NCBI RefSeq assembly: GCF_024502345.1
Contig: NZ_JALDNN010000001.1
Origin: Escherichia coli
GTDB lineage: Bacteria > Pseudomonadota > Gammaproteobacteria > Enterobacterales > Enterobacteriaceae
DNA length: 64,000 nucleotides
Direction: 5' to 3' (one strand)
Under the pieces are notes generated by a model, which saw nothing but the letters and a program-made list of their open reading frames with translations, was not told the origin of the DNA and searched no databases. Position numbers and translations under genes: made by a program. Below, piece by piece: positions 2,421 through 63,171 of this stretch; within the stretch, counting starts at the first letter, position 1; each line of letters begins with the position of its first letter.

Positions 2421-3759
2421 CATAAGCGCTAACTTAAGGGTTGTGGTATTACGCCTGATATGATTTAACGTGCCGATGAATTACTCTCACGATAACTGGT
2501 CAGCAATTCTGGCCCATATTGGTAAGCCCGAAGAACTGGATACTTCGGCACGTAATGCCGGGGCTCTAACCCGCCGCCGCGAAATTCGTGATGCTGCAAC
2601 TCTGCTACGTCTGGGGCTGGCTTACGGCCCCGGGGGGATGTCATTACGTGAAGTCACTGCATGGGCTCAGCTCCATGACGTTGCAACATTATCTGACGTG
2701 GCTCTCCTGAAGCGGCTGCGGAATGCCGCCGACTGGTTTGGCATACTTGCCGCACAAACACTTGCTGTGCGCGCCGCAGTTACGGGTTGTACAAGCGGAA
2801 AGAGATTGCGTCTTGTCGATGGAACAGCAATCAGTGCGCCCGGGGGCGGCAGCGCTGAATGGCGACTACATATGGGATATGATCCTCATACCTGTCAGTT
2901 CACTGATTTTGAGCTAACCGACAGCAGAGACGCTGAACGGCTGGACCGATTTGCGCAAACGGCAGACGAGATACGCATTGCTGACCGGGGATTCGGTTCG
3001 CGTCCCGAATGTATCCGCTCACTTGCTTTTGGAGAAGCTGATTATATCGTCCGGGTTCACTGGCGAGGATTGCGCTGGTTAACTGCAGAAGGAATGCGCT
3101 TTGACATGATGGGTTTTCTGCGCGGGCTGGATTGCGGTAAGAACGGTGAAACCACTGTAATGATAGGCAATTCAGGTAATAAAAAAGCCGGAGCTCCCTT
3201 TCCGGCACGTCTCATTGCCGTATCACTTCCTCCCGAAAAAGCATTAATCAGTAAAACCCGACTGCTCAGCGAGAATCGTCGAAAAGGACGAGTAGTTCAG
3301 GCGGAAACGCTGGAAGCAGCGGGCCATGTGCTATTGCTAACATCATTACCGGAAGATGAATATTCAGCAGAGCAAGTGGCTGATTGTTACCGTCTGCGAT
3401 GGCAAATTGAACTGGCTTTTAAGCGGCTCAAAAGTTTGCTGCACCTGGATGCTTTGCGTGCAAAGGAACCTGAACTCGCGAAAGCGTGGATATTTGCTAA
3501 TCTACTCGCCGCATTTTTAATTGACGACATAATCCAGCCATCGCTGGATTTCCCCCCCAGAAGTGCCGGATCCGAAAAGAAGAACTAACTCGTTGTGGAG
3601 AATAACAAAAATGGTCATCTGGAGCTTACAGGTGGCCATTCGTGGGACAGTATCCCTGACAGCCTACAAAACGCAATTGAAGAACGCGAGGCATCGTCTT
3701 AACGAGGCACCGAGGCGTCGCATTCTTCAGATGGTTCAACCCTTAAGTTAGCGCTTATG
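2421..3759 (+). mobile_element. IS186 insertion sequence
   Basis: Perfect 23-bp terminal inverted repeats cataagcgctaacttaagggttg at 2421-2443 and 3737-3759; flanked by 10-bp direct repeat ggagtgatcc at 2411-2420 and 3760-3769. Confidence 0.9.
2470..3588 (+). CDS. insL: IS186 transposase InsL
   Basis: 372-aa ORF inside the IS186 inverted repeats. Confidence 0.9.
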   Translation: MPMNYSHDNWSAILAHIGKPEELDTSARNAGALTRRREIRDAATLLRLGLAYGPGGMSLREVTAWAQLHDVATLSDVALLKRLRNAADWFGILAAQTLAVRAAVTGCTSGKRLRLVDGTAISAPGGGSAEWRLHMGYDPHTCQFTDFELTDSRDAERLDRFAQTADEIRIADRGFGSRPECIRSLAFGEADYIVRVHWRGLRWLTAEGMRFDMMGFLRGLDCGKNGETTVMIGNSGNKKAGAPFPARLIAVSLPPEKALISKTRLLSENRRKGRVVQAETLEAAGHVLLLTSLPEDEYSAEQVADCYRLRWQIELAFKRLKSLLHLDALRAKEPELAKAWIFANLLAAFLIDDIIQPSLDFPPRSAGSEKKN

Positions 3760-3850
3760 GGAGTGATCCCCGCCACTTTTCAGGTGCTCGCATATCTTCA
3801 ACGCACCCTAATTTTACCCAAGCCTGCCCACGGGCAGGCTTTTGGGGAGG

Positions 3851-4981
3851 TTAGCGGGTCAGGTCGTCAAAAAACTTCTTCACACCATCAAAGAAGCTCT
3901 TTGAGCGCGGGCTGTTGTGCTCACCGGTTGGGCCACCGAAGCTTTCTTGCAGCTCTTGCAGCAGCTGTTTCTGCTTCTCGTTCAGGCCTACCGGTGTTTC
4001 GACGACAACGCGGCACAGCAAATCACCCTGTGCGCCACCGCGGACAGACTTGACGCCTTTACCGCGCATACGGAAAAGCTTACCGGTCTGGGTTTCGCCA
4101 GGCACTTTCAGTTTGACGCGACCATCAAGGGTCGGTACTTCGATTTCGCCACCCAGCGCCGCCATAGCGAAGTTGATCGGGACTTCGCAATAGAGGTTGT
4201 TGCCTTCACGCTCGAAAATCGGGTGCTGTTTAACCTGAACCTGAACGTACAGATCGCCTGCCGGTGCGCCATGCTCGCCCGCTTCACCTTCGCCCGCAAG
4301 ACGGATGCGGTCTCCAGTGTCCACCCCTGCCGGGATTTTAACGGACAGCGTTTTGCTGCGCTCAACACGACCATGACCATGACATTTGTTGCACGGATCT
4401 TTGATCAGCGTACCGCGGCCCTGACAGTGTGGACAGGTCTGCTGTACAGCGAAGAATCCCTGACGCATCTGCACCTGACCAGAACCATGACAGGTCGGAC
4501 AGGTCTGCGGCTGTGTACCTGGTTTTGCACCGCTACCGTGGCAAACGTCACACTCTTCCAGAGTCGGAATGCGGATCTCTTTGGTCACGCCACGTACAGC
4601 TTCTTCGAGGGTGAGCTCCATGTTATAGCGTAAATCAGCACCGCGCGCCGCACGTTGACGACCACGTCCGCCGCCAAAAATATCGCCGAAAACGTCACCA
4701 AAAATATCGCTGAAGTCTGCGCCGCCGCCAAAACCGCCGCCGCCCATGCCGCCTTGCTCAAACGCAGCATGACCATACTGATCGTATGCCGCACGTTTTT
4801 GCGAGTCGGTCAGAACTTCATAAGCTTCCTTGATCTCTTTAAATTTCGCCTCGGCCTCTTTGTCACCCTGGTTACGGTCCGGGTGGTATTTCATGGCCAG
4901 GCGTTTGTAGGCCTTTTTGATTTCACGCTCTTCCGCTGTTTTGGAAACGCCTAAAATCTCGTAATAATCTTGCTTAGCCAT
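3851..4981 (-). CDS. dnaJ: Chaperone DnaJ (Hsp40)
   Basis: [13 protein letters not shown]-domain, Gly/Phe-rich region, four CxxCxGxG zinc motifs; start set at the MAKQDYY methionine inside the longer ORF. Confidence 0.95.
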
Positions 4982-44263: not shown

Positions 44264-45098
44264 GATTATCCCCTTCTCCTGCGTTGACGGGCCAGGCAGT
44301 CGTCTGGCTCTGTTTTTGCAGGGCTGCAATCTGCGCTGCAAAAACTGTCACAATCCGTGGACGATGGGACGCTGCAATGATTGCGGAGAGTGCGTGCCAC
44401 AGTGTCCGCATCAGGCGTTGCAGATTGTTGACGGCAAAGTGCTGTGGAACGCTGTGGTCTGCGAGCAATGTGATACCTGCCTGAAGAGGTGTCCGCAACA
44501 TGCCACGCCAATGGCGCAATCCATGAGCGTGGATGAGGTGCTTAGCCATATCCGCAAAGCGGTGCTGTTTATTGAAGGGATAACGGTAAGCGGCGGCGAA
44601 GCCACGACCCAACTGTCGTTTGTAGTGGCGCTATTTACAGCCATCAAAAACGATCCGCAACTGCGCCACCTCACCTGCCTCGTGGACAGTAACGGTATGT
44701 TGAGCGAAACCGGCTGGGAAAAATTACTCCCGGTGTGCGACGGCGCGATGCTCGATCTCAAAGCGTGGGGGAGCGAATGTCATCAGCAATTAACCGGACG
44801 CGATAATCAGCAGATTAAGCGCAGCATCTGTTTGCTGGCAGAGCGCGGTAAGCTGGCGGAACTGCGTTTGCTGGTAATTCCAGACCAGGTGGATTATTTG
44901 CATCACATCGATGAGCTGGCGACGTTTATCAAGAGACTTGGCGATGTTCCGGTTCGCCTGAATGTGTTTCATGCCCACGGCGTGTATGGCGAGGCGCAAA
45001 GCTGGGCGAGCGCCACGCCGGAAGACGTTGAGCCGTTGGCTGATGCGTTAAAGGTGCGCGGGGTGAGCCGGTTGATATTTCCGGCGCTCTATTTGTGA
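44235..45098 (+). CDS. yjjW: YjjW, radical-SAM glycyl-radical activating enzyme
   Basis: 287-aa; CxxxCxxC cluster (CNLRCKNC) plus additional Cys motifs; overlaps the yjjI end. Confidence 0.88.
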
Positions 45099-60493: not shown

Positions 60494-60552
60494 TTGATTT
60501 TATTCGTAACAAGTATTTTTTATATTTTAATAACATATTTAAAGCAGATAAT

Positions 60553-60576
60553 AAAAAACCCGCCTGAGCGGGTTTA
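60553..60576. terminator. Bidirectional rho-independent terminator
   Basis: aaaaaacccgcctgagcgggttt. Confidence 0.7.
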
Positions 60577-60856
60577 ATATTGTGGTACTTTTTGTGGGAG
60601 TCATCCACTTACGCACTTTGTTTTGCTATGCCAGCAGTTAGCTTCTGCTGTAAAACTATTCATGCAGCAAACCTGCACTTCACCACAATGGTTAGCATAC
60701 TTTTCCTGATTAAGTTATTGCCAAATATGCTGGCCATTGTTTCATGTATTGGACCTCCTTACTCTTTATTAAAGAGATCCAATATTCACCACTCTGTCTG
60801 TATCTCCACTCAGGCATCAGCCTTCTTCGTTATCGTATACAGACAAACTATGAATT

Positions 60857-61072
60857 TTAATCAGTAATTATGACATTTGCTGCTGCAGGACCTTTAGCAC
60901 CACTCTCTACAGAGAAGGTAACCTTTTGACCTTCAAATAAGATTCGATAATTATCATTCTGAATCGCAGAAAAATGCACAAACACATCTTTACTACCATC
61001 AACAGGAGAAATAAAGCCAAAACCTTTATCAGCGTTAAACCATTTTACTAAACCAGTCATTTTATTTGACAT
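60857..61072 (-). CDS. cspB: Cold shock protein, CspB-like
   Basis: 71-aa [71 protein letters not shown]. Confidence 0.92.
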
Positions 61073-61372
61073 TCTACATTCCTTAACTTGAGCCTTTCGG
61101 CATAAATGGCTTGTATAACAGAAACGACTTCGTACTTAATTGGAGAGACTCAAAGAAGGAATAAGTGAATAACACCTGAAATGAGAACTGCTTTAGTAAA
61201 CTACTTCGTATATCGTCTGTTCTTCAAACCGACGCAATCATTAACGCATAGTTGAACATATGAAGCAATGTTTATTTTAGACATCCAGCCATCTTCAACC
61301 CCATCAAAAAACTATAGCTTTCTTCAGGAACGTGTGTATAGTGCGCCAAGTTATCAGTATTAAGGAATTTTT

Positions 61373-61585
61373 TTGTCCCGTAAAATGACAGGAATTCTCA
61401 AAACCTTTGACGGCAAAAGCGGCAAAGGTCTTATAACCCCATCCGATGGTCGTATCGATGTCCAGCTTCATGTTTCAGCGCTCAATCTCCGCGATGCAGA
61501 AGAAATTACCACCGGATTACGCGTGGAATTTTGCCGGATAAATGGTCTGCGTGGACCATCAGCTGCCAATGTTTACCTTTCATGA
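61373..61585 (+). CDS. cspF: Cold shock-like protein, CspF/CspH type
   Basis: 70-aa [70 protein letters not shown]. Confidence 0.88.
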
Positions 61586-61639
61586 GCTATATTAAAGCTT
61601 TAACTTCAAGCCCCATCGAATCAAACATGGAGAGTTTTC

Positions 61640-61729
61640 ATGAATAAACCCGTCTGTCTTGATGACTGGTTGATTGGCTTTAAAAGCTTATGCTGTACTT
61701 TGACCTTAATAGCTCTGCTAATAATGTAA
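61640..61729 (+). CDS. Hypothetical 29-aa hydrophobic peptide
   Basis: [29 protein letters not shown]; GGAGAG SD 6 nt upstream. Confidence 0.3.
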
Positions 61730-61876
61730 TAAGCAGACTCATTGTATCTATGGACATTGTACTGGAAGAAAACATTTTAAACATCAGGCAAAAAACAAAG
61801 TCACCCGATAAATAATAAGTAAACTAACATGAATCCCGTAATGAGATTCAACATCTCTATTACCCTATTTAAAGCA

Positions 61877-61912
61877 CAAAAACCCGCTCATCAGCGGGTT
61901 TTCTACTTTTTC
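61877..61912 (+). terminator. Rho-independent terminator
   Basis: aacccgctcatcagcgggtt hairpin followed by a T run. Confidence 0.7.
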
Positions 61913-62007
61913 TTAACTTCGGGTATACAAAGCCCATCGTTGAAAAAATTTTATCCATATTTTTTGAAAAATGCAAGCATCACGTCGCCATCTTCGGCGA
62001 AAATCAC

Positions 62008-62760
62008 TTATCTCGTCACCTTTCTCAATTGTGCTTCAGCGTAAGATTCCTCCTGCCAGCACTTTGTAACCAGTTTATCAATGACATTTGCATATCCTTT
62101 ATACCACTGATAATCACTCAGGTCCGGTACCAGCTTCTGGACATGATGCCGCGCCAGTGTGGTTGGTAAACGACTAAACCGTTTTCCATTGCAACGCCCA
62201 CAAATCTTATAAACAGGTGTGCCATGAAGCCGGGTCCTTTTTTCATCCAAGACAATACCTTTACCCTTACACCCTCTGCACGCTGTGCTGACTTCTCCCT
62301 TACCATGGCAATGCTGACATAGTTCCTTCACCCACTCTTCTTTGATAACAGATTCCCCGCTTCTGGAGTGTTTCACCACTTCGCGCAATACATTATGAAA
62401 TCCAGTACCAGCACAATGCTCACAACGAGCCTTACTTGCCGCAGACCTGGAATAATCAGCAAAGGCAAAATTCACAAGGTAAGGAATAATCTGTAGCCGG
62501 GTTTCTTCACTCAATTTATTCAATGTCGGGTTATCCAGTGCCATCGCGTAATTGAGCAGACCTTCAATCGCAAACTGAGGATCCTGAACACCAACTTTTG
62601 CCAGGAATAAGGCAAACCCAAGCGGTGCTTTCGACTGCACCATCCCCTGCGCAGCCATCACATCCGTAATCGTTAAACCACCAGAGCCTGTCGCCGGTGC
62701 GTCATCACTCAATTTTGGAGATTTTGGGGAGTAATATTTTGGTAAGGCTTCAAGGTTCAT
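62008..62760 (-). CDS. Late-gene antiterminator Q (QuuQ/YdfT type)
   Basis: 250-aa ORF with Cys-rich zinc-finger-like segment CEHCAGTG...CQHCHGKGE...CRGCKGKG...CGRCNGK. Confidence 0.8.
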   Translation of the reverse strand: MNLEALPKYYSPKSPKLSDDAPATGSGGLTITDVMAAQGMVQSKAPLGFALFLAKVGVQDPQFAIEGLLNYAMALDNPTLNKLSEETRLQIIPYLVNFAFADYSRSAASKARCEHCAGTGFHNVLREVVKHSRSGESVIKEEWVKELCQHCHGKGEVSTACRGCKGKGIVLDEKRTRLHGTPVYKICGRCNGKRFSRLPTTLARHHVQKLVPDLSDYQWYKGYANVIDKLVTKCWQEESYAEAQLRKVTR

Positions 62761-62820
62761 GCTCGTTCTCCACTTACGCCAGTACGCCTATTGCCAGCGC
62801 ACGATCGATAAAACGAAATA

Positions 62821-63171
62821 TCAGCTCCAGCTGGGAGCCATACTTCTCTTCAAATGCCACGGTAAACGCTGGTTAATATCGGCATTGTCCACATCCTCGA
62901 CGTCAGGAAGAGACACAAAGACGCCATTTGCAGACTGCGCCACAGCGTCAGCAATGAAGTGAGTGCCACCAGCACGTTGTAAAATCATTGCCCATCCCAG
63001 CGGGAAAATCTGATCGCCATCGGCACGAAGGCGGTTAAATAATGCGTTCTCTGTTACATCCAGCCACTCAGCAGCTTCAGCGTACCCCACCGGCAACGCC
63101 GCGATAGTTTTTCTGACAGCTTTCACGTACCACTCAGGCTGTTTTTCCACTTTCCAGTGATGATTACCCAC
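62821..63171 (-). CDS. Hypothetical early-region protein, possibly CII-like regulator
   Basis: 116-aa, GTG start, immediately downstream of cro; family not identified. Confidence 0.45.
   Translation of the reverse strand: MGNHHWKVEKQPEWYVKAVRKTIAALPVGYAEAAEWLDVTENALFNRLRADGDQIFPLGWAMILQRAGGTHFIADAVAQSANGVFVSLPDVEDVDNADINQRLPWHLKRSMAPSWS

Follow-up and report, generated by a model that had tools for sequence, protein, structure and literature searches.

ynfS, a prophage gene downstream of cspF, probably encodes a tail-anchored membrane micro-protein

The 29-codon open reading frame (ORF) that follows cspF in the Escherichia coli DNA analysed here (64,000 nt, the whole stretch being referred to as the window) was identified from its sequence as an allele of ynfS, a known gene of Qin-type lambdoid prophages. 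This gene already has a name, a Pfam family of its own and published evidence of translation; what our analysis adds is the purifying selection between genera, the strict linkage to cspF and an argument against a type I toxin. With moderate confidence we take ynfS to encode a translated micro-protein that is the second cistron of a cspF-ynfS moron, is anchored in the inner membrane by its tail and acts via helix packing. The features of the locus are as follows.

61373-61585, plus strand: cspF, a paralogue of the CspA family and the upstream gene of the pair (ORF list; RefSeq annotation of O55:H7 CB9615 and K-12; Pfam CSD, 74 bits)
61586-61628, plus strand: spacer between cspF and ynfS, not conserved between genera (scan; E. 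coli/Citrobacter alignment)
61629-61634, plus strand: Shine-Dalgarno sequence (SD) GGAGAG, with TTTTC as the 5-nt spacer to the ATG (sequence)
61640-61729, plus strand: ynfS allele, 29 codons and TAA (ORF list, Pfam, orthology with K-12)
61730-61878, plus strand: 3' untranslated stretch from the stop codon to the terminator, about 150 nt, conserved only within E. coli-type prophages (alignments)
61879-61902, both strands: predicted bidirectional intrinsic terminator hairpin (scan and folding)
61933-61976, minus strand: late promoter of the lambda pR' type, 3' of Q (ydfT) and convergent with cspF-ynfS (minus-strand sequence, alignment with lambda)

The window allele and its counterpart in K-12

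The ORF begins with the ATG at 61640 and ends with the TAA at 61727-61729, which is followed by a second in-frame TAA. Its start, stop, strand and 29-residue translation agreed with the original prediction, and so did its placement after cspF (54 nt from the end of that gene) and the presence of a GGAGAG SD 5 nt 5' of the ATG. The prediction had also let the ORF end before a terminator, which describes the locus poorly: the sole terminator-like hairpin on the plus strand is the one at 61879-61902, 150 nt 3' of the stop codon.

Many E. coli chromosomes match the region 61300-61950 with 100% identity, among them that of O55:H7 CB9615, in which RefSeq labels the identical ORF a 'hypothetical protein' (WP_122632654.1). 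In the Qin prophage of K-12 MG1655 the equivalent place, between cspF and ydfT, is occupied by ynfS (b4750, 1642122-1642211), and the gene order of the window, cspB(-), cspF(+), ORF(+), ydfT/Q(-), matches that of the K-12 Qin-type lambdoid prophage. The window peptide and K-12 YnfS are identical at 25 of the 29 residues; the four differences between the alleles (K3N, T22A, L23V and M29I) are all nonsynonymous, and the start context and SD are identical save for the base that precedes the ATG. K-12 also has the terminator found here 3' of the gene. The window peptide scored 70.1 bits against Pfam PF23697 'YnfS' (cutoff 27) with positions 1-29 of 29 covered, and a Citrobacter variant scored 34 bits against the same family. 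Searches of NCBIfam, PHROGs and PADLOC gave no match for the peptide. No second copy of ynfS was found within the 64,000-nt window, and no YnfS-like ORF was found 3' of cspH, the closest paralogue of cspF, in K-12.

Ribosome occupancy with start-site mapping, one of the checks proposed for the ORF, turned out to have been published for the K-12 allele: Weaver et al. (bioRxiv 10.1101/511675) reported strong retapamulin and Onc112 start-codon peaks on K-12 ynfS. VanOrsdel et al. 2018 (PMC6001520) describe SPA tagging of the chromosomal K-12 sORF, a positive immunoblot and the name YnfS, and state that YnfS was positive in a tetracycline ribosome-profiling screen too. All of this evidence for translation and protein accumulation concerns the K-12 allele rather than the window allele. 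A 2024 y-ome survey still placed ynfS among the uncharacterised Qin genes and the published literature reports no function or phenotype for YnfS, a situation that it shares with many other validated small proteins of E. coli.

The length of the ORF is by itself not beyond chance, since 48 ORFs of at least 20 aa overlap 60500-63000 in the ORF list. We count ynfS as a real gene because the SD and the ORF are conserved across genera, because the purifying selection is specific to its frame and because translation of the K-12 allele has been published. Two other ORFs at the same place were rejected, being absent from the Citrobacter loci: an overlapping 41-aa ORF in the +1 frame (61690-61815, plus strand) and an antisense 34-aa ORF (61680-61784, minus strand).

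Conservation between genera and apparent relaxation within E. coli

Loci carrying ynfS were gathered via CspF-guided retrieval, degenerate DNA patterns, exact cluster look-ups and a profile search, the last being seeded with N-terminally over-called versions of YnfS of 48 and 39 aa. Every cspF homologue recovered was followed by a small ORF 54-65 nt past its stop codon, even where CspF was only 82-86% identical, and in 143 of 144 loci a cspF-type C-terminus and stop codon lay at that distance 5' of the small ORF. The ORF of the divergent loci again had exactly 29 codons (for example MNQTVYLSDWLTGLKSLCSTIAMTILLFI, MYPKIYLNDWLTGLKSSCCTLIVTILLFI, MYQKIYLNDWLTGLKSSCCTLIVTLLVFI and further variants). 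The 29-aa homologues from Citrobacter prophages were about 50% identical. Three matches, all from Citrobacter, came out of a degenerate-pattern scan in which each species was represented by one genome; cluster look-ups placed YnfS variants in C. freundii, C. braakii, C. amalonaticus and their relatives, and an allele close to that of E. coli in Salmonella enterica. When 1.84 billion representative proteins were searched exhaustively with the profile, there were 14 hits, all of them members of this narrow group or fragments thereof. Another protein from the profile search, the 239-aa repeat protein P0045, aligned in three repeats with no more of the profile than positions 8-19; we took this match as chance.

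When E. coli and Citrobacter loci were aligned at the nucleotide level, the alignable parts were the last stretch of cspF, the motif AACAxGGAGAG and the 29 codons of ynfS; the remaining spacer and the sequence past the stop codon did not align. The GGAGAG itself was invariant across all E. coli and Citrobacter clades while the neighbouring spacer had diverged, and the ynfS frame was the only one open in all clades. Between clades dN/dS was 0.12-0.36 (Nei-Gojobori), with saturation of the synonymous sites when E. coli was compared with most Citrobacter clades, and Fisher tests on three between-clade contrasts gave p = 0.006, 0.0075 and 0.0024. Because of these ratios we conclude that purifying selection has acted on the peptide sequence in Escherichia and Citrobacter prophages alike, and ynfS would then not be translational noise; conservation at the protein level, another proposed check, was accordingly found both in the between-clade ratios and in the Citrobacter homologues. 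Eleven residues (M1, L7, D9, W10, L11, G13, K15, S16, C18, T20 and L26) were invariant in the 17 aligned variants, with S16 and L26 being altered in a later variant from C. amalonaticus.

Several of the Citrobacter loci had features of their own. In L069-L079 and L149 a GC-rich hairpin lies 10-45 nt past the ynfS stop codon, for example GCCCCT...AGGGGC or CTGGCCTC...GGGGCCAG; it has no U-run, its sequence varies by clade, and a role as 3' stabiliser or as terminator is conceivable. The locus of Citrobacter sp. On2M (L150, about 3600-4600) is a decayed remnant that adjoins phoPQ and contains an integrase fragment. Its ynfS-like ORF has a less hydrophobic tail (…VVTTLSVI), its cspF is without a stop codon and its opposite strand carries an ORF resembling a cspB/cspF fusion. 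In Citrobacter braakii ATCC 51113 (L151, 2031-3902, minus strand) cspB and cspF-ynfS are followed by a 623-aa ORF instead of Q, and because of this replacement the cspF-ynfS unit is found outside the Q-pR' context too.

Another explanation is that within E. coli ynfS is translated without a function, as a relic of decaying prophages that has kept a good SD and may once have been functional in active phages. The 128 E. coli-type copies fell into nine haplotypes with 10 nonsynonymous segregating sites and 1 synonymous site; for cspF at these loci the corresponding numbers are 10 and 19. The ynfS alleles include a nonsense change (K15>stop) and a loss of the start codon (ATG>ATA). A 258-bp deletion, corresponding to 61575-61832 of the window (loci L004, L005 and L153) and present in phage Tritos as well as about 220 complete E. 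coli genomes, has removed the last codons of cspF and the whole of ynfS; cspF is frameshifted too in the deletion lineage. Since the deletion sits in that many genomes and in a viable phage, cspF-ynfS is dispensable. These observations favour a functionless relic, as do the missing function or phenotype in the published literature and the narrow range of 14 representatives among the 1.84 billion proteins. Against it, the length, frame and SD are kept in Escherichia, Salmonella and Citrobacter despite scrambled flanks and with the low between-clade dN/dS, the ORF was intact in 78 of 80 cspF-guided IMG/VR loci, and the nonsynonymous excess within E. coli was not significant against neutrality (p about 0.27, binomial estimate). 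On balance we consider a relic possible but rather unlikely. The unit was also found intact in phages 2H10, HannyBb, PhiR42_1 and PhiR63_1 by DNA search. The constraint on ynfS within E. coli looks relaxed, and the gene may be decaying in the cryptic prophages of this species. The synonymous diversity of ynfS in loci L008-L148 amounts to 1 site, too few to separate constraint at the nucleotide level from chance or recombination.

Layout of the unit and the question of a type I toxin

The scan found neither a promoter-like nor a terminator-like site in the spacer at 61586-61628, and we therefore infer, as the economical reading, that cspF and ynfS are co-transcribed. The linkage in 143 of 144 loci and the joint loss of the two genes in the 258-bp deletion allele also speak for an operon. 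A consensus scan did not locate a promoter of the unit. For cspF itself, the mRNA has been reported to be up in long-term stationary phase and after AZT treatment, a knockout had no phenotype in long-term culture, and overproduced CspF had no action on the CspA/CspD targets tested. The minus-strand neighbour cspB and its long 5' leader are spanned by an Rfam match to the cspA thermoregulator (152.8 bits, 60794-61233, minus strand), from which it would follow that the cspB copy of the window prophage retains a cold-sensing mRNA structure.

At its 3' side the unit meets the late transcription of the phage. The hairpin at 61879-61902 folds with z = -5.0 on the plus strand and z = -4.8 on the minus strand and has U-runs on both sides; it is predicted to end the cspF-ynfS transcript in one direction and to act as a tR'-like terminator of the late promoter in the other. 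The late promoter consists, on the minus strand, of TTGCAT (61976-61971), a 17-nt spacer and TAAAAT (61953-61948), followed by TCAACGATGGG (61943-61933). Alignment with lambda 44500-44800 showed the same spacing of the pR' -35 and -10 elements, and the 11-mer TCAACGATGGG recurs unchanged at the beginning of lambda's late transcript. We take the roles of the lambda pR' and tR' elements to be those known from the work of the Roberts laboratory, and this 11-mer contains the sigma-70-dependent pause element. Q (ydfT) lies upstream on the same strand with its stop codon at 62008 (Pfam Antiterm, 179 bits). The hairpin, read as 61902-61879, is about 40 nt past the pR'-like promoter, and a terminated late leader RNA of ~70 nt, much shorter than the lambda 6S RNA, would be predicted. 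The ydfT/Q ORF (62011-62760, minus strand) also contains repeated CxxCxGxG motifs, for which the DnaJ central zinc-finger model scored 31.2 bits, just under its cutoff of 32.7. Because cspF-ynfS points against late transcription, the unit would be expressed from the resident prophage.

The original prediction had noted a resemblance to small membrane peptides and type I toxins. The size and the hydrophobic C-terminus on which it was based were borne out, whereas the toxin part was not supported. Type I toxins are shorter than 60 aa, have one hydrophobic helix and are often found on mobile elements, and TisB, ZorO and the DinQ-type toxins are of similar size and have a hydrophobic C-terminus. 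As a toxin of this kind YnfS would damage the membrane, would be blocked by an antisense RNA and would be freed by stress or by loss of the prophage. YnfS is indeed small, hydrophobic and borne on a mobile element like TisB, IbsA-E, LdrA-D, ShoB, DinQ, ZorO and the Hok family, and its hydrophobicity and helix model fit a small peptide with a membrane-spanning helix. Its prophage location (K-12 Qin also bears hokD and relBE), the knockout alleles in nature and the late transcript, which when antiterminated by Q would lie fully antisense to ynfS, also speak for a toxin. It differs from these toxins in having no sequence similarity to them, Pfam returning YnfS alone, in being operonic with cspF and in being translated in normal growth, and no cognate antisense RNA was found.

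The Rfam scan gave no match near ynfS, its only match in the region being the cspA-type thermoregulator over the cspB leader; no promoter-like site was found by scan on the opposite strand at 61586-61900; and none of the non-coding flanks of the ORF is conserved between clades in the alignment, so that a conserved antitoxin gene seems to be lacking. The late promoter is the only convergent promoter, and a strong terminator stands between it and ynfS. Nor does the mRNA appear to be silenced in growing cells: no stable structure sequesters the SD, which is unpaired in the centroid fold; its unpaired probabilities are 0.17-0.52, and the weak structures differ by clade. Being placed behind cspF, ynfS is not a stand-alone transcript with a long 5' untranslated region. 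For the K-12 allele, strong initiation peaks and the protein were seen in ordinary LB cultures (10.1101/511675; PMC6001520). In the literature searched, growth arrest or membrane damage from YnfS overexpression was not reported. We consider a type I toxin unlikely.

Least credible, in our view, is that the act of translation matters rather than the peptide, with ribosomes shielding the 3' region of the cspF mRNA from Rho, RNases or convergent late transcription: the shortness of the ORF, its strong SD, its place in a 3' region with 150 nt to go to the terminator, and synonymous sites that are nearly invariant within E. coli, would suit it, but the amino acids and the exact length are kept although the synonymous sites are saturated between clades, and the 3' region that would be shielded is not conserved.

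A probable membrane peptide and comparison with known systems

The sequence of YnfS supports the other half of the resemblance, that to a small membrane peptide. Residues 1-9 are polar and variable, and W10-M29 form a 20-residue hydrophobic stretch that runs to the C-terminus and is broken by the conserved K15-S16. The mean Kyte-Doolittle value of residues 10-29 is 2.0, and the position-independent Hessa sum is about 0 kcal/mol in the E. coli alleles and +1.5 to +4.4 in Citrobacter; the Citrobacter sums count against a membrane helix because these variants are less hydrophobic. The Citrobacter homologues do keep this architecture. AlphaFold2, run on the family alignment, modelled YnfS as a single unbroken helix in which the C-terminal 20 residues had pLDDT 87-89, a result that carries little information for so short a peptide. 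G13, S16 and T20 lie on one face of this helix (i, i+3, i+7), and in our reading such a small/polar face would be typical of helix-helix packing. A reading as a lipoprotein was dropped on inspection: no lipobox precedes C18 and the N-terminus is not signal-peptide-like.

We regard YnfS as a probable tail-anchored membrane micro-protein, a view based on its sequence, namely the hydrophobic C-terminal 20-mer and the invariant G13/S16/T20 face. A chain of 29 residues leaves the ribosome only after its release, having not yet exited the tunnel, and any insertion of YnfS into the membrane would therefore be post-translational. In the mechanism that we favour, cspF-ynfS would be a small, independently transcribed moron between pR'/tR' and the lysis cassette, which the resident prophage would express. 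ynfS would be translated from its own conserved SD, the W10-M29 helix would enter the inner membrane after translation and serve there as a tail anchor, and the polar N-terminus of about nine residues would stay in the cytoplasm. Because the invariant residues include the small/polar face G13-S16-T20, we suggest that YnfS acts by helix packing, in which this face would pack against another membrane helix, belonging either to a partner protein or to YnfS itself, in the manner of known small membrane regulators. A benefit to the lysogen may follow. A bolder version, which we think improbable, makes CspF and YnfS an obligate two-part unit: the tail-anchored peptide would act at the lysogen's inner membrane, perhaps in superinfection exclusion or membrane adaptation, together with CspF or regulated by it as an atypical cold-shock-domain protein. 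If true, both orphan genes would thereby obtain their first function. For the study of YnfS the conserved G13, K15, C18 and T20 and the linkage to cspF are concrete handles.

The unit can be compared with several known systems. With phage morons, independent units of promoter, gene and terminator that are inserted among phage genes, cspF-ynfS shares an orientation opposite to the late operon, a terminator of its own and presence or absence among otherwise collinear phages; it differs in that its promoter was not located by the consensus scan and in that phage Tritos has a deleted or decayed unit rather than an empty site. Other CspA-family genes of this or a paralogous region are also followed immediately by short ORFs, as in cspI-ynfQ-ynfR-ynfN-gnsB of Qin and in cspG-ymcF-ymcE-gnsA. 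YmcE spans the membrane once, and GnsA and GnsB have an effect on the lipid composition of the membrane. These small proteins have no sequence similarity to YnfS; one of the cspI-linked set, YnfR, is described as cold-induced in PMC6001520. Finally, with the small inner-membrane regulators AcrZ, MgtS, MgrB, KdpF and CydX, YnfS agrees in size, in having a single predicted transmembrane helix with a conserved small/polar face, and in being expressed endogenously at a detectable level. The analogy is a functional one only: these regulators have no homology to YnfS, which is borne on prophages and confined to three genera.
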